IMG/VR virus record: IMGVR_UViG_3300049482_000051
Coordinates: 1 to 52,570 of that record
From: a virus
Lineage: Duplodnaviria; Caudoviricetes
DNA length: 52,570 nt
Reading direction: 5' to 3' (one strand)
The position numbers and the translations under genes are program-made. The notes beneath the pieces are model-generated. The model ran no database searches. It was not told where the DNA came from and saw only the letters and a program-made list of their open reading frames with translations. Each line of letters starts with the position of its first letter. The stretch's first letter is position 1. Shown here piece by piece: positions 16,795 through 28,180 of this stretch.

Positions 16795-18327
16795 TTACCC
16801 TTTGGCGCCTACGAGAGTTTGTTCTTCCGGATCCCCGTCAATCGTCACGCTAAGCACTTCGTCGTACTTGGCTTGGATGCTGATACCCAGGTCACTCTTG
16901 ACGGTGAAGGTGTCGCGGTCCATGGCGGTCAAGCGACCGTCGAAGGCATGGGACTTCGCCAGAGTCTCGACGACCACATGGCAGCCGAGGTGATTCTGGA
17001 GGTCCTTCATCCTCGGTAGACTGAGCGTCAGTTGCGACGTGATGTCAGCGATGAAGCCCCAAGAGACTTGGCCAGTCCCGCCGTCATGGCGCTCATAGGA
17101 TAGGCCGATGTCGCTGATGGACGTGCAGACCCCGACGCGCTTCTCGTCGTTATTCAGGACGATCACGACACGCCGACCGATGAAGATACCCGCGTTGTTT
17201 GAGTGCCACACGGGCGTCAGAGTAACCGTGGAGGTCTCTTTGTTGGCCAGGTAGTCATTGATCGCGGCCTCGTCGGCAGCCGTGGCAGCTTCCAGGGCAT
17301 CCGTGTCGTCCTTAGGCTCTGCGAAGGCCAGGAGCGCGTCAGGTACGCCGGCGAGTTCTTTGGCGCTAAGGAGCTTCATGGCCCAGCGAACGGAGGGCTT
17401 GGTGGGCTTGAGGGTTTCGACTTGTTCGAGGACAAAGTCCAGGAAGTCCTCGCCCTCCTCGGGCAACCAGTCGTACCGATCGACTGCGTGCTTCAGGTCT
17501 TTGGCTTCGTCGATAGTCAGGATCTTGCGATGGACCAGAGAGCCGCAGCGCTTACCGAAGTTATCAGTAGCTTTCTTCCGAGCCTCTTTGTATGTCTCCA
17601 TGCGCTTTTTGGCCGCTTCGTGGTCGTACCCTTGGTTAGTCCCAGTATTGCTGCTGCTCCCGGCGTCTGGCTTCGTCGATGGACTGTTGCCAGTTTGCAT
17701 TGCTCGGCCCTGACGAAAATTTCCGGCCTGTGATCCTCCGGCCTGATGTGCTGGTGCCTTGTAAACCTGGTACCCCATGTTCGAGTAGATGAGGCCTGTC
17801 TCCTTGTCCTCGTACCAGCCACTCTTGTTCAGGAGAACCACGCCGCGTGGCTCGATCACGGCTACCTTGTTGCCGCCTCCCATATACTCCTCGACCAGAT
17901 GCTGCCATGGACGCTCCATGTACCAGCCGTCAGGCAGCTTGGTCAAGATGTCCTCAGTGAAGGCCGAGGTATCCGAGCGGCCCTTGCCATACTCCACGAG
18001 CTTCTGGTAGGGCAGGATGCCGTTGTGGGCCATCGCAACCTTGCCGTCCTTGACCCAAAACGGATGAGTATTGGCCTCGTCCTTGGATCCGTGGGTGCCG
18101 ATGCGGAAGTGCAGCATGTAGAAGATGTCTTTGGCTGGCAGGTCCAGCAGAGGCTGCATGGCGGCTCGGAAGTCTGCGAACTTCATGAGGCCCTTGACGA
18201 CGCTGATGCCGCCATTGACATCGGGGTAGGCGATGCCTGCACCGTCTGGATTACGGCTCCACATTTGCTGGAGAACTTCGTCCGTTGGGTGCGAAGCGCC
18301 GGAGACTTTGACTGCGATGATGCACAT
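16795..18327 (-). CDS. class II (Ntn) glutamine amidotransferase with a long C-terminal extension
   Basis: Catalytic Cys2 (MCIIAVK), NPDGAG, HFRIGTHG, NTHPF, AHNGIL, SDT. Confidence 0.9.
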   Translation of the reverse strand: MCIIAVKVSGASHPTDEVLQQMWSRNPDGAGIAYPDVNGGISVVKGLMKFADFRAAMQPLLDLPAKDIFYMLHFRIGTHGSKDEANTHPFWVKDGKVAMAHNGILPYQKLVEYGKGRSDTSAFTEDILTKLPDGWYMERPWQHLVEEYMGGGNKVAVIEPRGVVLLNKSGWYEDKETGLIYSNMGYQVYKAPAHQAGGSQAGNFRQGRAMQTGNSPSTKPDAGSSSNTGTNQGYDHEAAKKRMETYKEARKKATDNFGKRCGSLVHRKILTIDEAKDLKHAVDRYDWLPEEGEDFLDFVLEQVETLKPTKPSVRWAMKLLSAKELAGVPDALLAFAEPKDDTDALEAATAADEAAINDYLANKETSTVTLTPVWHSNNAGIFIGRRVVIVLNNDEKRVGVCTSISDIGLSYERHDGGTGQVSWGFIADITSQLTLSLPRMKDLQNHLGCHVVVETLAKSHAFDGRLTAMDRDTFTVKSDLGISIQAKYDEVLSVTIDGDPEEQTLVGAKG

Positions 18328-18368: not shown

Positions 18369-20873
18369 TTAGAAGTCGTGACCGGCCACAGCGGCCCGTG
18401 CGTTGAAGGAAGCCAGGTGGTCAAGGACTGGTTTGTAGCGCTCTCCTTGTTCCGTGAGGAACTTCTTGTAGGACGCAATGCCGATCGTGCCGTTCTTGGG
18501 CAGGGCCTTGTTGCGACAATACTGGATGACGCTGTCGATGAAGAGCACATTGCGGCGGTACTCTGCATATGACGTGGTGGACTTGAAGATCCGGAACTCC
18601 ACGGTTTTCTCCGTCATGTTGACGGCAGCGTATCGCTGACTCTTCCGGGCGTCCAGGTCCGTGGCCAGATGGACCATTTCGCTGACCGGAGTACCTCGGG
18701 CGCCCCAGTCTAACGAAGCATACGTACTCCGTCGACCAGCAAAGTGAACCGTGAGTTCAGGATTGCCGTAGATGAAGCGCTGGACTCGGAGCAAGCCACG
18801 ACCGATTCGGCGTTCTAGGGTGGACTTTTCTCCTTGGGGTAAGGTGCTGGATAACACCTCGAAACCCGGTTTCGAGGTGTGGATATGAATACCACAGCAG
18901 TCGCGCTCAGCCATCTGGACGCTCAGGTACTGGAACAGCGTCTGGAGGGTGCCCTCGTTCTCGTCCATCCAGGCCAGCGAGAAGGGATGCGACACGAACT
19001 CGATACCATCGCCGATAGAGCCGTCGCGCTTGGCGTAGAAGAGGCCCTTGGACAGTTCAATGGCCCGCTTGGCTGTCGGAGTGCGCTCGTAGGCTCCTCG
19101 GCCACACAGTTCAACCTCAGTACCAAAGTACAGTGGTCCTACGCCGTGAAGACGGGCCTTGGGCTTGTAGCTATAGTCAGCGACGACCTGGAAGTTATTC
19201 TTGCGATAGCAGACAGCACAGACGCCGAAGACGTTTGAGGTGGCCTCGAAGCCCTGGCGACACCCCGGGCATTGGTCGACGTGGGAAGCGCAGGCGCCGC
19301 AGACCATATGGGTTGTCTCGTCGGCCCGGATAACAGTGAAGCCACGTTCGCGGCTATGAGCAGCGCCGCAGCGGGGGCATGTCTGGTTCAGGCGGCGAAG
19401 GACGGCCTGTTTGCCCTTGGCGGTAACGGGGTATTTAACTCCGTCGACCGTGATGCTCTCGGTGGGCTTTCCAAGCTTGGCCTTGCCGAGCGTGCCATTC
19501 TCGTTGTTGACCGTGAGGTACCATTCGCCGGGTGCTGCGAGCATACGGACAACGGTATAGCGTGAAATGTTGCTCTCTTCGGCGAAGCGACTTGGACGTT
19601 CAAGCATGGCCGAATGACCGAAGCTAACAAGGCGTGCAGTTCCCGGAAGGTCTGGAGTGCAGACATCAGATACCACGTCGCCGCCGAACATGAGATACAA
19701 GGCGCCTGGGACACGCGGGCCAGGTAGGTTGAGGGTGCCTTGAACAATGTGGGGTTCGAGGCCGTAGACCTGGTCTCCAGTGATGAGCAGTTGCATGCGA
19801 CGATCGCCGTCGGCCATGACAAAGGCGTCTTCTTCCTCAAAGTTGATGTCGACCTTGGACATGGTCCGGAGCCGCAGGGAACGAATGAGTGAGCCAGTCT
19901 CCAGGCAGGTCACGACGCAGCGACGACCGCTGTAGGTGATAATGGTACCAGGTTCAGGGATGTCAGACTTAGGACGCGGGGCTGCCCAAGTGATACCCTC
20001 GGGCTCTGGAACAGTGACAACAGGAAGGCCGCAGTAGCGCAGGCTTCCCTGGAAGAACTCGGACGACGGAGGAACATTGGAGTTCTCCTGGATGTTCTCC
20101 ATGAGAATGGCGCCGTTGTTGTCGACCCAGGCTACGCTCTTATCTGCGACGGCCAGGATCTTGCCATGTGCCTCGCCGTACTTGATGAACATACCGGGCT
20201 CGAACCGAGTAGTCGGGGCGACCGTAGTAAGCTGAGTGAATGGGCCTTTGAGGTCTCCCTGAGGAACGCGGCCCTCAAAGTCAGCGGGCTCAATGCCGTG
20301 ATCGCGGCGCTTGAAGATGCGCTGACGGCCTTCGTGGACAGCGTGAAACAGAGCGCCTGAGGGAACGTCGGTGACTTTGGTAGTGACACCATGAGTAGTT
20401 ACCGTAGTGCCGCCAGGATTGAACGGGCGGTTAGCGGCGTCGAGGAACTGACCAGTAGGCGAGAGGTGAAGAACCTGAACGCCGCCGTTCTTGCCGTGAA
20501 GGATGTTGGGACCTGCGATCATGAGGCGACCACCGCCTTCAAGCTCGAAGAGGCCTGGTTCTACGGTGAACGGAATGTTCGAGGTGTCAAGTTCATTGGC
20601 CTTGTAGGCCGCAGCGATGGCCGCGATGCCGTAGCCCGTGTAGAACTTGAAGCCGTCGACCGTCGAGGACGCGACGTTCTGAAATTGGTGTGTTGCCAGA
20701 GTTGCGGCAACGTTGATTTCTGGGCATGAACCAATGCGGTTCAGCGGTGACACGAAGAACCGGAGGCATCCGGAGCGATCGGTCACGGGAGGTTCGATGA
20801 CTCGGAAATGCGCGCCAGTCGTGTCGACCAGCACGGAGTCTTTGGTGATATCAGTGAGGGCCGAGATCGTCAT
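18369..20873 (-). CDS. putative amidoligase (COOH-NH2 ligase, Amidoligase_2-like) with zinc ribbons and a long N-terminal extension
   Basis: YFGTEVEL, KRDGSI..GIEFVSHP, CGIHIH, RYAAVN, TVEFRIF; four CxxC pairs immediately upstream; adjacent to the GATase. Confidence 0.85.
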   Translation of the reverse strand: MTISALTDITKDSVLVDTTGAHFRVIEPPVTDRSGCLRFFVSPLNRIGSCPEINVAATLATHQFQNVASSTVDGFKFYTGYGIAAIAAAYKANELDTSNIPFTVEPGLFELEGGGRLMIAGPNILHGKNGGVQVLHLSPTGQFLDAANRPFNPGGTTVTTHGVTTKVTDVPSGALFHAVHEGRQRIFKRRDHGIEPADFEGRVPQGDLKGPFTQLTTVAPTTRFEPGMFIKYGEAHGKILAVADKSVAWVDNNGAILMENIQENSNVPPSSEFFQGSLRYCGLPVVTVPEPEGITWAAPRPKSDIPEPGTIITYSGRRCVVTCLETGSLIRSLRLRTMSKVDINFEEEDAFVMADGDRRMQLLITGDQVYGLEPHIVQGTLNLPGPRVPGALYLMFGGDVVSDVCTPDLPGTARLVSFGHSAMLERPSRFAEESNISRYTVVRMLAAPGEWYLTVNNENGTLGKAKLGKPTESITVDGVKYPVTAKGKQAVLRRLNQTCPRCGAAHSRERGFTVIRADETTHMVCGACASHVDQCPGCRQGFEATSNVFGVCAVCYRKNNFQVVADYSYKPKARLHGVGPLYFGTEVELCGRGAYERTPTAKRAIELSKGLFYAKRDGSIGDGIEFVSHPFSLAWMDENEGTLQTLFQYLSVQMAERDCCGIHIHTSKPGFEVLSSTLPQGEKSTLERRIGRGLLRVQRFIYGNPELTVHFAGRRSTYASLDWGARGTPVSEMVHLATDLDARKSQRYAAVNMTEKTVEFRIFKSTTSYAEYRRNVLFIDSVIQYCRNKALPKNGTIGIASYKKFLTEQGERYKPVLDHLASFNARAAVAGHDF

Positions 20874-20909
20874 GGGGTTTCCTTGAGTTGTAACTTCGTT
20901 ATTTCACAC

Positions 20910-20940
20910 AAAAATACCCAGGGTTTGTAGTCCCCTGGGT
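20910..20940 (-). terminator. intrinsic terminator
   Basis: ACCCAGGG/CCCTGGGT stem followed by ATTTTTG on the minus strand. Confidence 0.65.
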
Positions 20941-20965
20941 CAGAGCCGCTTCTACTTTCGTAGAA

Positions 20966-21172
20966 TTACGGGTTCTTGATTTCCAACTGCACGGTCTTCA
21001 CAAAGCTCAGGCCACGGGCACTGCGGATGTGATTGCGCGCATTGCGCTCAGTGCGGTACGTCTTCGCACCGGGTTCGATGTTGCCCGCAGCGTCCTTGTA
21101 GACGTTGACGAAGAACTTCACGGTTGCCGCAGCGGCAACGGGGGCGACGAGGGTCTGCTGGAAACGGGACAT
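20966..21172 (-). CDS. small basic hypothetical protein
   Basis: 68 aa with a strong AGGAG Shine-Dalgarno; lies between the ribozyme and the terminator. Confidence 0.7.
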   Translation of the reverse strand: MSRFQQTLVAPVAAAATVKFFVNVYKDAAGNIEPGAKTYRTERNARNHIRSARGLSFVKTVQLEIKNP

Positions 21173-21259
21173 GATAACTCCTGCTGCCGGTTAAGGCGTG
21201 CCCATCAGTGTGTCGATGGGGGTTCCCTTGAGCGCAAGGTAGGGCGGTGACACGGACGT

Positions 21260-21348
21260 GTACACTACAGCGCGGGTACCGTAGCTGAGGAGGCTACGGC
21301 TTATTACTCACGCGCTGTTTCGGCCACTCAGGCCATCTTCAGGTGTAC
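21260..21348 (-). ncRNA. type I hammerhead ribozyme
   Basis: Minus strand reads GUACAC-CUGAAGA-U-GGCC(UGAGU)GGCC-GAAA-CAGCGCG...CGCGCUG-UA-GUGUAC: complete core, three paired stems and a GUA cleavage triplet. Confidence 0.9.
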
Positions 21349-21366
21349 TAGCGTAGCTAGACTAAC

Positions 21367-21582
21367 TTAGAACTTCCTAGAGTTCTTAGCGCGCTGATAG
21401 TCAGCCCAGTAGCCGAAGCCACCGGCAATAATGATGACCAGGAGCATGATGAACCAGAAGGTTACAAGGCCAAGCAACGGCGACATCACCCAGAACCAGG
21501 ACCATGCGGCAATGGCTGTGAGTCCTGCGAGTTTGCAGAAGATGAAGGCGGCTTGGAGCATGGCGATGATAGCGGTGAGCAT
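21367..21582 (-). CDS. small membrane protein (KL.G...WSW.WV.SP family common in phages)
   Basis: FCKLAGLTAIAAWSWFWVMSPLL; two hydrophobic helices. Confidence 0.7.
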   Translation of the reverse strand: MLTAIIAMLQAAFIFCKLAGLTAIAAWSWFWVMSPLLGLVTFWFIMLLVIIIAGGFGYWADYQRAKNSRKF

Positions 21583-21615
21583 GTGATTTCCTGTTTTCTG
21601 TGTAGCTTAGCTACA

Positions 21616-21685
21616 ACAAAAAGCCGCCGTGCACGAACCCCCAAGACCCGCAGGTCGCATGGATGGGCTTACTGGCACGGCGGCT
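21616..21685 (-). ncRNA. candidate ~70 nt small RNA or attenuator hairpin
   Basis: An 11 bp stem AGCCGCCGUGC/GCACGGCGGCU closes an inner hairpin and is followed by UUUU; it begins 7 nt after a -10 box. Confidence 0.55.
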
Positions 21686-21692
21686 GAGTGGT

Positions 21693-21719
21693 AACGTAGA
21701 GTTCTTTGAACTATGTCAA
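21693..21719 (-). promoter_or_regulatory. sigma70-like promoter
   Basis: TTGACA-15 nt-TACGTT; AGTTC/GAACT inverted repeat in the spacer. Confidence 0.55.
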
Positions 21720-22018: not shown

Positions 22019-22317
22019 GACTGGCTTTCTTGGGCGATAGGACGGCGGGGAGAGCCTGAGGCGTCTTGAAGCGCAAAGGCGAGGTTGTTGAGGCGAGTGT
22101 TCATCATTTCTTGGAGCTCTGGGCCACGAGAGAGGATCTCAACGCCTGGGTGCTCAGAGCCACTGGCCTGGGCTAGGAACACAAGGAGTTCGTCGCCTGC
22201 GCTGGCGGCTTTGTGGAGCGCAAGGCCGAGGGCTCGGAGTTTTGAGATAACTAGGTACTGGAAGCAAATGATGAACAGGGCAATAGCGAGGGCTATTGAG
22301 AGGATGAGGGTGGTCAT
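22015..22317 (-). CDS. membrane-anchored hypothetical protein
   Basis: N-terminal TM helix; ATGA coupling. Confidence 0.65.
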   Translation of the reverse strand: MTTLILSIALAIALFIICFQYLVISKLRALGLALHKAASAGDELLVFLAQASGSEHPGVEILSRGPELQEMMNTRLNNLAFALQDASGSPRRPIAQESQS

Positions 22318-22577
22318 GGTTCTTTCCAGACTAGTTTAACGCGGACTACGAGGCACGTGGGGCCTGCGCGTCGATTGGCTCCTAGGCCAGGCACTGGGGC
22401 CGTAGCGTGCTCGAAGTGGGTGCGGTACTCTACGCAGTCGTGGTACGGCAGTGCCCTGGTGTTCGAGGTCTTAACGTAGGTGTAGGTATCAAAGTCAGCT
22501 GGGCATCCAAAGACTTCGCCGATGGCCAGGTCTTTGAATTCCAGGGTGTTTCCGGTGGCTAGGGCTTTCCAGGGCAT
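22314..22577 (-). CDS. MPW-array paralog 8
   Basis: MPWKAL...FKDLAIGEVF...YVK...VKLVWKE. Confidence 0.75.
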   Translation of the reverse strand: MPWKALATGNTLEFKDLAIGEVFGCPADFDTYTYVKTSNTRALPYHDCVEYRTHFEHATAPVPGLGANRRAGPTCLVVRVKLVWKEP

Positions 22578-22579
22578 GT

Positions 22580-22831
22580 CTAGTTACTCCAGCGGAACTT
22601 CAAGGTGTTGAATATAGGGCCATCGCTGGCGCTTGCATGACGCGCAATGGCCGGGGAGCGCGGAGGAATCACAGGCTGTTCGCCGGGGGTGAAGTAATCC
22701 CAGTGGTTTTGGAGAGGCCCTGTCTTTAGCCAGAACTTGGTGGCGGCCATGTGGGCTCGGGAGAACACAGTGCCAACTTCCATAGACTCAAAGGTTACGT
22801 CGCGCTTTACTACTGAGAATGTCCAGGGCAT
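22580..22831 (-). CDS. MPW-array paralog 7
   Basis: MPWTFS...FESMEVGTVF...WLK...LKFRWSN. Confidence 0.75.
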   Translation of the reverse strand: MPWTFSVVKRDVTFESMEVGTVFSRAHMAATKFWLKTGPLQNHWDYFTPGEQPVIPPRSPAIARHASASDGPIFNTLKFRWSN

Positions 22832-22832
22832 T

Positions 22833-23093
22833 TTAGTCCTTCCATTCTAGGCGGTACATGAACACCTTTGCGTTGTCACGGAAGGGTGAGTGTATTCTGG
22901 CAACTGGAGAAGCCTTGGGTACGGGGCCTTCGTTGGAGTCGGAGGTGTTTATGGAGAAGCACTCGGTTTCGGTGTGCTTGACGCGGCCTGGATAGCGATA
23001 GCCGGGGGAATAGGTATGTAGGGATACGCCTAGGCCTATTGGTACATTGCGGAATGTGCTTAGGCCAAGGCAGGATTTGATGACCCAGGGCAT
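22833..23093 (-). CDS. MPW-array paralog 6
   Basis: MPWVIKS...FRNVPIG...RVK...YRLEWKD. Confidence 0.75.
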   Translation of the reverse strand: MPWVIKSCLGLSTFRNVPIGLGVSLHTYSPGYRYPGRVKHTETECFSINTSDSNEGPVPKASPVARIHSPFRDNAKVFMYRLEWKD

Positions 23094-23094
23094 T

Positions 23095-23346
23095 TTAATC
23101 TCTCCATTCTAGCTTTATTTGGTGCCAGGATTGTTCTGGGCTATGCGAGCCTCGGCTACTGTCGAGGGGTCGTGGTATGGGAATATATCCGCGATCTAGC
23201 CTTTGGAGCCTGCCCTCGTGGTTGAGAATCAACACGGACCCAACCTCTTCGCCTACTGTGTTCTCCATGCACTGAATCGTTGAGCCTGGAGGCAGGTGCT
23301 TCATGAGGCTAGGATGATCTGCTATCCAGGTGACAATCCATGGCAT
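23095..23346 (-). CDS. MPW-array paralog 5
   Basis: Start at MPWIVTW (23346); MKHLPPG...IKLEWRD. Confidence 0.7.
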   Translation of the reverse strand: MPWIVTWIADHPSLMKHLPPGSTIQCMENTVGEEVGSVLILNHEGRLQRLDRGYIPIPRPLDSSRGSHSPEQSWHQIKLEWRD

Positions 23347-23348
23347 GA

Positions 23349-23585
23349 CTAAACATCCTTGGTGGTGAGGGTGCCCTCCAGTTCGATAACTTCGTATCCT
23401 ACGCACCAGACGTGCTCTTTGCCAGACTCGGTGCCAGTAAGGGTCATGGAGCCATTGGTGCTATGTTTCAGCTTCATGAACACAACGCCGGGGAACTTCT
23501 CGTCCCGGAATAGGTCTCCGCCTTCCAGGTGGTCGATGACAACTTTGCGGCCCCGGACTTCGCGGTTCAAGGTAATGCGTGGCAT
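23349..23585 (-). CDS. MPW-array paralog 4 (most divergent termini)
   Basis: MPRITL...IDHLEGGDLF...VFMK...VIELEGTL shares the core pattern. Confidence 0.7.
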   Translation of the reverse strand: MPRITLNREVRGRKVVIDHLEGGDLFRDEKFPGVVFMKLKHSTNGSMTLTGTESGKEHVWCVGYEVIELEGTLTTKDV

Positions 23586-23586
23586 G

Positions 23587-23859
23587 TTATATTTCCTTGT
23601 ATTCTACGTTTACGAGTTGGCACTTATAGTCTGGACGCAGGAACACATTCTCGGCCACGGGGCTCTGGATTGAAGGCGTGGGACTTAGGGTCAACGGGGA
23701 GTAGCTATGCGCGTCGCGCTTGATGAGGGGAGTCCAGGCGGTGTCGCCTATGTGAAGGTCTGCGTGGCCTATGATAGACCAAGTTTGCCCTACGGCCATG
23801 TCGCCGAAGCGAATGTGAGGGCCTACGCTTTTTATTACCCAGGTCATAAGGATCCTCAT
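23587..23859 (-). CDS. MPW-array paralog 3
   Basis: (MRIL)MTWVIKS...FGDMAVGQTW...LIK...VNVEYKE. Confidence 0.7.
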   Translation of the reverse strand: MRILMTWVIKSVGPHIRFGDMAVGQTWSIIGHADLHIGDTAWTPLIKRDAHSYSPLTLSPTPSIQSPVAENVFLRPDYKCQLVNVEYKEI

Positions 23860-24122
23860 TCAATCCAGGCTAGGGTGGCGCGGTAGACCAGGTGTTCATC
23901 ACTGTAGTATTCGTGGTATCCGTTGAGTGAGGGAACGGGAGTAGCGCCATGGTGCCTAGGGTGGTTTGCGTCAACATACTGTTCGGGGCCGACCTTGATG
24001 AGGGTGTAGAGGTGTCTGGTCATGAGCAACTCGGGATCGCACGCTGTGGCCCAGGCTTCTCCGACTCCGATTTCAGAGAACGGAACGCGGGTATTAGATA
24101 TGCTTCGCATTACCCAGGGCAT
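23856..24122 (-). CDS. MPW-array paralog 2
   Basis: MPWVMRSI...FSEIGVGEAWA...LIK...VYRATLAWIE. Confidence 0.75.
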   Translation of the reverse strand: MPWVMRSISNTRVPFSEIGVGEAWATACDPELLMTRHLYTLIKVGPEQYVDANHPRHHGATPVPSLNGYHEYYSDEHLVYRATLAWIE

Positions 24123-24125
24123 AGG

Positions 24126-24404
24126 CTACTCCACATAGGTAAGGATGGCTTTGTAGACAGTGCGGGATGGGGAGAAGTCATGACGGGTCCAGGTGCTTGA
24201 TACCCGCAATGAGGACAGATCAGGAACGGGTAATAGGGCTAGCGTTACATCAAGGTACAGGTGGTCATCGAACTTTATGAGGGACCTGACTCCTGGATTC
24301 ATGATGTAGTAGGGCACTTCGTAGCTTGATGCCCAGGCTTCTCCGGGGAGTAGGGTGCCATAAAGCACGGGCTCGGGGTTTATGGATTTCATTAGCCAGG
24401 GCAT
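24126..24404 (-). CDS. MPW-array paralog 1
   Basis: MPWLMKSI...YGTLLPGEAWA...LIK...VYKAILTYVE. Confidence 0.75.
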   Translation of the reverse strand: MPWLMKSINPEPVLYGTLLPGEAWASSYEVPYYIMNPGVRSLIKFDDHLYLDVTLALLPVPDLSSLRVSSTWTRHDFSPSRTVYKAILTYVE

Positions 24405-24411
24405 AGGACAC

Positions 24412-24840
24412 CTATTCCTCTAGGAGGATACCGCACGGCGTTTCTGAGCCGTCTTCGTGGACGTGGACGAACATAGCCAGGAGGCTTTCAGGCATGCACA
24501 GCTTCTCAGACTGGTCAAGGCCTTCGTAGCTTACTAAGCTGGCGTAGGTGTTGGGGGTTCTTTGGGCGGCAAAGATGTGCTGGGTGTGGCTATGTAGGCA
24601 GCGAATCATGAGAATCTTGGGTACTTCGTCCTTGGTCCAAGGGCGCCACTTAGGTTTGGGCTTGACGCGGAACTCAAAGTTGCCGTTGAGCATCTTGTGC
24701 CAGGAGTCGAAGTCACGGGAGTTCATGTCCTGCCAGCGAGGCGGGGTTTGGTCATCGACAAGGAAGGAGTACTGAATTGCCTTGCCACCGACGAAGGCCT
24801 GGAGGATTGGGATGAGGAACGAGGCTTCGTTGACGTTCAT
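24412..24840 (-). CDS. conserved phage hypothetical protein
   Basis: ILQAFVGGKAIQ...W.D...FRVKPKPKWRPW is a pattern I recognise from phage early proteins of unknown function. Confidence 0.65.
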   Translation of the reverse strand: MNVNEASFLIPILQAFVGGKAIQYSFLVDDQTPPRWQDMNSRDFDSWHKMLNGNFEFRVKPKPKWRPWTKDEVPKILMIRCLHSHTQHIFAAQRTPNTYASLVSYEGLDQSEKLCMPESLLAMFVHVHEDGSETPCGILLEE

Positions 24841-27446: not shown

Positions 27447-28180
27447 GGGAGTCCTAGACGACTAGGGTTTTCAAACGTCATTGTGCCACCCTGTTACCAG
27501 GATGGACACAGAACGCTTGGAAGCGTCTTGGAGTGTTATTTTGAGGTTGCACTGCCATTAGGATGCTAACGGGTCGCCCCTGACAACTATGTTGCCGCAT
27601 CATCACCTAACACGCCAAACTAGGTCAAGCTAGTCCGGTCACATGGTCTTGTCAGAACCAAGAGGGCAAGAGCGTGCTTGATCCGAGGTGCGCCGCACTA
27701 GGCGGGTCTGGTATCTGTGGTCATAATGCCGGCCAAGATGTCTTGGCTGCTACCACGCTCACATGGTCGCTGCATCACCTGATGCATTGTGTCCCTGTGT
27801 TTACCGGATCGCTCAGATTCTGGGAGCTTCGCCGGATGCTTGGACACCTGGGACGCTAGGTCAGAACCCTAGACGGCGCAGGCGCTTGGATGTCAAAGTC
27901 CTTGTGACCCTAGGCGGGCCAAGACCCCGAAGGTCCTGGTATTTTGATCCTCCCGGTCGCTTGGTGGTCTCTGCCACCTAGGTCTAACCGGATCTCACAT
28001 AGTCTTAGAGGGCTTGGAAACTAGGATGACTGGGTCGCGTGGACAACTGAGACACCAAGACAACCTAATTATTCCGTTTTGAAACCGACTGTGAGAATAA
28101 GGGTCCCTACCCCCCAGCCGCGCAAACAACCGGGATATAAGGTAACACTTGAACACATAGCTAACCGAGGCTACTAGGAC

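Follow-up and report, generated by a model that had tools for sequence, protein, structure and literature searches.

A complete type I hammerhead motif in a metagenomic phage genome, a member of a populous phage ribozyme class located upstream of a single small gene

We identified a complete type I hammerhead ribozyme motif on the minus strand of a complete virus record of metagenomic origin (52,570 bases; the whole of this stretch is referred to as the window), where, by sequence reading, it spans 89 nt (21348-21260). A preliminary description had put forward such a ribozyme, and computation bears this out: the core is full, all three helices form, the cleavage site is a legal UH, the match goes beyond chance, and the element fits a class of viral hammerheads. 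We consider it quite likely that the motif is a genuine type I hammerhead within a leftward polycistronic RNA, where it would cut co-transcriptionally and thereby uncouple the mRNA of a downstream 68-aa gene.

Every part that had been listed for the ribozyme was found in place in the sequence. On the minus strand, the 5' strand of stem I (GUACAC, 21348-21343) pairs over 6 bp with its 3' strand (GUGUAC, 21265-21260) in the MFE fold and is followed by the core C3-A9, CUGAAGA (C3 U4 G5 A6 N7 G8 A9; 21342-21336), by an extra U between A9 and G10.1 (21335), and by the stem II hairpin GGCC-UGAGU-GGCC (21334-21322), which is evident in both the sequence and the MFE fold. The closing pair of this hairpin, G10.1-C11.1 (G21334-C21322), is present, with U21335 separating G21334 from A9. 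Next come G12 A13 A14 (GAA, 21321-21319) and A15.1 (21318), which pairs with U16.1 (21267), and then the 5' strand of stem III (CAGCGCG, 21317-21311). Together with its 3' strand (CGCGCUG, 21274-21268), this segment forms the 7-bp stem III of the preliminary description, or 8 bp when A15.1-U16.1 is counted, so that by sequence and fold the whole of stem III (21318-21267, 52 nt) encloses a 36-nt insert. The insert consists of a first part, UGAGUAAUAA (21310-21301), a nested hairpin supported by sequence and fold, GCCGUAGC-CUCCUCA-GCUACGG (21300-21279), a U (21278) that can pair with G21300 and extends the nested hairpin to 21278, and ACC (21277-21275) ahead of the 3' strand of stem III. A17 (21266) occupies the cleavage-site position H17 (non-G), and hammerhead numbering places the predicted cut after A17 and before G1.1 (21265), with the triplet GUA; its earlier placement at 21266/21265 was correct. 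The unpaired A residues directly 5' (21349) and directly 3' (21259) of stem I form an A/A cap. The positions that define membership of the hammerhead family, C3-A9, G12 A13 A14, A15.1-U16.1 and a non-G at 17, are all present in sequence and fold, and the helices (6, 4 and 8 bp in the MFE fold) follow the type I order, with stem I open and stems II and III closed.

A descriptor of the motif (CUGANGA, 0-1 inserted base, closed stem II, GAAA, stem III, UH, stem I) matched the window exactly once over both strands and, with stems of at least 5/4/4, gave no match in 400 dinucleotide-preserving shuffles; with loose 4/3/3 stems, four matches were obtained in 400 such shuffles. CUGANGA words occur 33 times in the window (16 on the plus and 17 on the minus strand), and only the one at 21342-21336 is followed by a 4-bp stem II and then GAA. 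Folded alone, the 89-nt element adopts the three-way hammerhead junction as its MFE fold (-39.2 kcal/mol, z = -4.75), a stability reached by none of 200 shuffles, and the whole 194-nt gap in which it lies is more structured than its own shuffles (z = -2.96). Taken alone, the shuffles exclude chance incompletely, as the scan covered very many windows; the class comparison described below closes this gap, and the hammerhead match is beyond chance.

The class is defined by the pattern CUGANGA-N-GGCC-loop (3-8 nt)-GGCC-GAAAC, that is, core, free base, GGCC, loop and GGCCGAAAC, and the pattern occurs in at least 119 viral contig stretches. With lenient thresholds, the loci listed for it contained 125 matches (93 type III, 21 type I and 11 neither). 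With stricter thresholds, 98 of the 112 matches listed with 140-nt flanks formed a complete hammerhead (15 type I, 83 type III), as compared to 18 of 2240 flank-shuffled controls (0.8%), and the base inserted after A9 was T in 92 of these 112 listed matches. The exact stem II hairpin of the window, followed by GAAAC, was found in 19 copies in 12 further viral loci, 18 of which are complete type I hammerheads that lack the extra base, the remaining copy being cut by the contig end; some of these loci carry two to three copies per contig, each a short way ahead of a ribosome-binding site and start codon. Pooling both sets yielded 42 distinct type I members, in which stem I measures 5-6 bp and is never longer. 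Copies with and without the insert were found on the same contig in four loci (L024, L046, L047 and L115). An extra U after A9 is common, and no rarity, in viral contigs. Known hammerhead alignments, too, contain insertions of 1-2 nt beside CUGANGA (PMC10085705), which upholds the view that a single-base insertion at this point occurs in natural variants.

Within the class, 26 members keep all 15 pairs paired, with 9 of the 15 changed on both sides, a count that is partly circular given that the sequences were picked by a pairing filter. Members typically lie ~27 nt upstream of an ORF start. Position 17 is C in 38 of 41 members and the cleavage site is UA in the other three (3/41), while long stem III inserts (loops >35 nt) are likewise found in 3 of 41 (L031, L047 and L120). 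The unusual points of the window element are its 52-nt stem III with a nested hairpin and its GUA site; otherwise, it is a real but ordinary example of a hammerhead. By its sequence, the element adds a further example to a phage class that is already known and has many members, marked by an open stem I of 6 bp, a GGCC stem II of 4 bp and, often, an extra U, and the alignments of Perreault et al. may already contain this class.

Several members of the class deserve mention in their own right. Loci L122-L133 are related phage contigs that carry two to four type I hammerheads each, with near-constant stem II and loop, and each of these hammerheads precedes, by ~27 nt, the start of an ORF of its own that has a GGAG ribosome-binding site. 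A type I element of the same class lies 2 nt after a tRNA inside a 24-tRNA array (L086, 4317-4363, minus strand), and another lies 8 nt after a tRNA (L031, 12068-12169, plus strand); hammerheads placed directly 3' of tRNA genes hint at a role in tRNA-array processing in other phages.

A feature that was absent from all search patterns links loop II to the open end of stem I. An A at both -1 and +1 of a 6-bp stem I accompanied a 5-nt UNANU loop II in 25 of 25 members, versus 1 of 16 members with other loops, although the 25/25 count and its Fisher value are inflated because many members come from related phages; even so, ~6 distinct stem I sequence groups carry the signature. In the window element, loop II is UGAGU, A21349 and A21259 flank stem I, and stem I begins with G-C, as in all 25; this signature provides independent support for the membership of the element in the class. 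The A/A-flanked stem I is also a better candidate for a loop II contact than the pairing suggested in the preliminary description, in which UGAG of loop II would bind CUCA in the stem III hairpin loop or in the downstream hairpin. We rejected UGAG:CUCA as the main tertiary contact on grounds of geometry and class comparison: stems II and III stack coaxially with their distal ends far apart (PMC10085705), such that the duplex must bridge the far ends of the two stacked stems, and class members with the same loop lack the partner. A duplex of modest calculated energy would result in either case: -6.0 kcal/mol for the stem III loop and -7.1 kcal/mol for the downstream hairpin. No pseudoknot partner for a stem I-loop II interaction was found in the window element. 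The UNANU-A/A association points to a testable tertiary contact in open-ended type I hammerheads.

The search with Rfam hammerhead models that had been proposed as a check came back empty. No Rfam family, hammerhead models included, reached its gathering score in the window, and the element, which shares the core and three-helix junction of RF00163 (Hammerhead_1, type I) and RF00008 (Hammerhead_3), matched no Rfam hammerhead model at E <= 10 on the 401 nt around the site. The same models also miss clear members of the class, with no hammerhead at the Rfam gathering score in 21 loci that contain clear phage hammerheads. For a textbook-looking compact type I element in L040, the models gave no more than a partial alignment to the type II model, at 13 bits. 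With Rfam Hammerhead_3, an evident type III copy in L012 reached 32.5 bits where the cut-off is 48.5, its extra base after CUGAUGA being aligned as an insertion. Because clear class members are missed likewise, the Rfam null says little about the window element; the result measures the reach of the models and not the fold, and the curated models are too narrow for the phage class. As Rfam 15 cut-offs miss the whole phage class, such elements go unannotated. The loci missed by Rfam 15 include L012, L016, L006, L111, L119, L122, L123, L125, L130, L018 and L040. With the covariance model R1, the site was the only match in the window (28.3 bits, E = 5e-7), a score that is partly circular in that the sequences behind R1 had been retrieved with the core of the candidate itself. 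R1 aligns only the 5' half correctly, the 3' half being misaligned owing to the long stem III insert.

Minus-strand genes extend from ~27.4 kb to 4 kb, as small, tightly packed ORFs followed by larger genes including a DNA polymerase, and plus-strand packaging and structural genes follow from 28.2 kb onward. The preliminary description had assigned the element to an early transcript, a deduction from gene order only; the leftward RNA is probably early. Minus-strand ORFs in this part of the operon overlap or abut, and the widest non-coding gap among them, 194 nt in length (21366-21173), contains the element and no minus-strand ORF of at least 30 aa. The upstream gene (21582-21367, minus strand) encodes a 71-aa predicted membrane protein (phrog_1374, function not assigned). 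Immediately beyond the stop codon of this gene lies a small hairpin, GUCUAGC/GCUAG-AC (21362-21345, minus strand), which shares bases with the 5' strand of stem I and, in energy models, competes with the active ribozyme fold.

The downstream gene (68 aa; 21172-20966, minus strand) starts 93 nt after the predicted cut and is preceded by a Shine-Dalgarno sequence, AGGAG (21182-21178, minus strand). Its product has one homologue, P0002 (68 aa, 69% identical, from a Logan assembly), which supports the predicted gene as probably real; the protein matched no Pfam or PHROG family, and its structure neighbours in the Atlas are unnamed phage proteins. Directly after the gene, on the same strand, is an intrinsic-terminator-like hairpin, ACCCAGGG-9 nt-CCCUGGGU, with 8 bp and a subsequent U tract, AUUUUUGUGUG (20940-20905). 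The 71-nt stretch of this hairpin has a z of -3.51, and it lies 32 nt before the start codon of an 834-aa gene; a consensus terminator scan missed it because of the 9-nt loop. By descriptor and CUGANGA survey, the hammerhead is single in this genome, whereas related classes often occur in sets, and no other ribozymes or tRNAs were found in the window.

In the mechanism that we propose, the junction would fold once the 3' strand of stem I (21265-21260) exits the polymerase, loop II would dock onto the A/A-capped end of stem I, and the 2'-OH of A21266 would attack its own 3' phosphate. The upstream RNA would be left with a 2',3'-cyclic phosphate and the compact ribozyme at its 3' end, and the downstream RNA would start with a 5'-OH at G21265, possibly within a 5'-terminal hairpin (21265-21247), and would carry only the 68-aa gene before the terminator-like hairpin. 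As this downstream RNA would consist of the 68-aa gene alone, cleavage would uncouple the stability and translation of its mRNA from those of the early genes upstream. The enlargement of stem III most probably represents a peripheral expansion that the ribozyme tolerates. Two other readings of the nested hairpin were rejected: as a terminator, it was listed on the plus strand only, among 8 matches where 7.5 are expected by chance, and against a repeated element, the words of its arms turn up elsewhere only as isolated 7-mers and it falls outside all repeat families.

How efficiently such an element would cut depends on its behavior in longer transcripts. In the energy model, stem I has a pair probability of 0.5-0.87 when the transcript ends at 21260, and this value drops to 0.01 when 20 further nt are transcribed, with two flanking hairpins, among them one predicted from the fold between the 3' strand of stem I and downstream sequence (21265-21247, minus strand), beating the active fold by 3.9 kcal/mol at +20 nt and by 6.3 kcal/mol over the whole gap. 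As the longer transcript disfavours stem I, cleavage may be inefficient unless it is co-transcriptional or aided by tertiary contacts. These energies would suit a hammerhead fold that is catalytically weak or conditional, a slow or gated cutter that cleaves a fraction of transcripts, hampered by the extra U, the GUA site, the 36-nt insert and the two competing hairpins, the balance depending on how fast transcription proceeds or on a factor bound to the nested hairpin; we regard this as unlikely. Predicted loss of stem I is common across the class (7 of 40 members at +20 nt, 18 of 40 at +90 nt) and may therefore reflect a shortcoming of the energy model, in which tertiary contacts are left out. 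GUA occurs as an active triplet in nature and is somewhat slower than GUC in purified ribozymes acting post-transcriptionally at low Mg2+, but during transcription a GUA variant outpaced the three other variants compared with it (PMC1636495). The long insert is indeed unusual for the class, whereas the extra U is the commonest state among the viral matches listed and coexists with copies lacking it on the same contigs. The modelled dependence of stem I on transcript length is, in our reading, a general hint of co-transcriptional action and product release, and does not call for a special switch.

The other alternatives concern the origin of the motif and the use of the gap. A chance or decayed hammerhead-like sequence, in a gap that serves as a protein-binding hairpin, an RNase III site or cassette spacing, would be compatible with the lack of an Rfam match, with the lack of any orthologue found to show conservation, and with the very many windows scanned, among which rare chance matches are expected somewhere. 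We nevertheless hold it to be very improbable, because none of the 400 shuffles reaches even weaker stems, all invariant core positions are intact, a core and stem II with shuffled flanks so rarely complete a hammerhead, and the element has class features that had not been searched for (a 6-bp stem I starting from G-C, A/A flanks with UNANU, and a location between genes, ahead of an ORF). A promoter inside the gap that makes the 5' end of the 68-aa mRNA, leaving the hammerhead only to trim read-through, would agree with the resemblance of a gene with its own terminator to an independent cassette, and phage-specific promoters would escape a sigma-70 scan; however, that scan found no sigma-70-like site on either strand between 20000 and 27598 (the only three sites fall within 27599-28097), hairpins occupy the stretch from the cut to the start codon, and a promoter leaves the intact hammerhead unexplained, making this explanation scarcely credible. 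It is also distinctly unlikely that the ribozyme and the terminator ~325 nt downstream constitute a self-excising single-gene cassette, in which CUCCU of stem III would mask AGGAG until cleavage frees translation as the upstream fragment leaves. CUCCU in the nested hairpin loop is complementary to the downstream AGGAG, a coincidence with a chance of ~1.8% for a single test, but other long-insert class members have no CUCCU-type complementarity, and masking is given low weight on that account.

One metatranscriptome run from another study, X2, contains four contigs at least 99% identical to the window, covering 20986-21249 (depth 20.1), 21327-21477, 21460-21610 and 23324-23590 (depth 3 each). 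None of the X2 contigs spans 21250-21326, where the cut site falls. Given that assembled contigs show neither ends, strand nor level and that the library may contain DNA, we do not count this hole or the difference in depth as evidence of cleavage.

Searches for relatives of the phage itself gave little. Comparison of 20900-21700 with cultured phages by blastn yielded no match, tblastn of the DNA polymerase likewise gave none, and tblastn of the 834-aa protein returned only partial mycobacteriophage matches at 28% identity. A protein-guided scan of viral contigs with the 834-aa protein found no relative, and a scan with the large terminase found only one 24%-identical fragment (L121). The alignment of the 68-aa protein with P0002 retrieved nothing from metagenome, viral and genome contigs, and the exact core and loop pattern with the extra U had no metagenome match. 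With a single ribozyme, a single small gene and a single terminator, this phage lineage without known relatives offers a clean case.

The nearest counterparts of the element are the type I hammerheads of the IMG/VR loci L018, L040, L042, L117 and L122-L133, which share with it the type I order, a 6-bp stem I starting with G-C, a GGCC stem II, a UNANU loop II (UGAGU, 12 distinct copies), A/A flanks and a downstream ORF. In these loci, stem III comprises 5-6 bp with a 4-nt loop and the ORF begins ~27 nt after the cut, in contrast to the 52 nt, 93 nt and GUA of the window element. Beyond the ribozyme, no sequence similarity linking these phages to the window was found by blastn or protein-guided contig scans. 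An active hammerhead with an extra nucleotide between A9 and G10.1, that of the plus strand of chrysanthemum chlorotic mottle viroid, was reportedly described by De la Pena and Flores in 2001. That hammerhead is of type III and belongs to a viroid RNA with rolling-circle replication, whereas the window element is of type I and lies in the mRNA of a DNA phage. The hammerheads of cherry small circular RNA (+) and sLTSV (-) resemble it in their GUA site, 6-bp helix I and 4-bp helix II (PMC1636495), but are circular satellite or viroid-like RNAs with a closed loop 1, whereas stem I of the window element is open and flanked by single A residues.

Hammerheads of phages and prophages were reported by Perreault et al. 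(2011) to flank genes in sets, several of them cleaving in vitro, and were proposed to cut polycistronic RNA (PMC3088659). The window element shares with them the consensus core, the intergenic position in a polycistronic operon and the proposed transcript-cutting role, but differs in being a single copy and not part of a set, and in the 36 nt, nested hairpin included, that are inserted in its stem III; the pseudoknot that was described for many of those representatives is not evident in it. A further source describes phage hammerheads as abundant and their purpose as an open question, and differential stability or translation of the cleavage products is a suggestion that awaits demonstration (PMC6765202). 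The window copy leaves this picture of their purpose unchanged.

Two further observations concern neighbouring genes. Tandem small minus-strand genes within 22314-24423 (22314-22577, 22580-22831 and 22833-23093) encode products that begin MPW, and their repeated 5' ends, CCAGGGCAT on the plus strand, recur at 23085, 23841, 24116 and 24396, a pattern suggestive of a family of at least five paralogous early genes. Over residues 482-788, the 834-aa protein (18369-20873, minus strand) shows ~28% identity to mycobacteriophage proteins annotated with a 'glutamine amidotransferase domain', and the next gene (510 aa; 16795-18327, minus strand) has weak class-II amidotransferase Pfam matches below the cut-off; the two genes may form an amidotransferase-like module.
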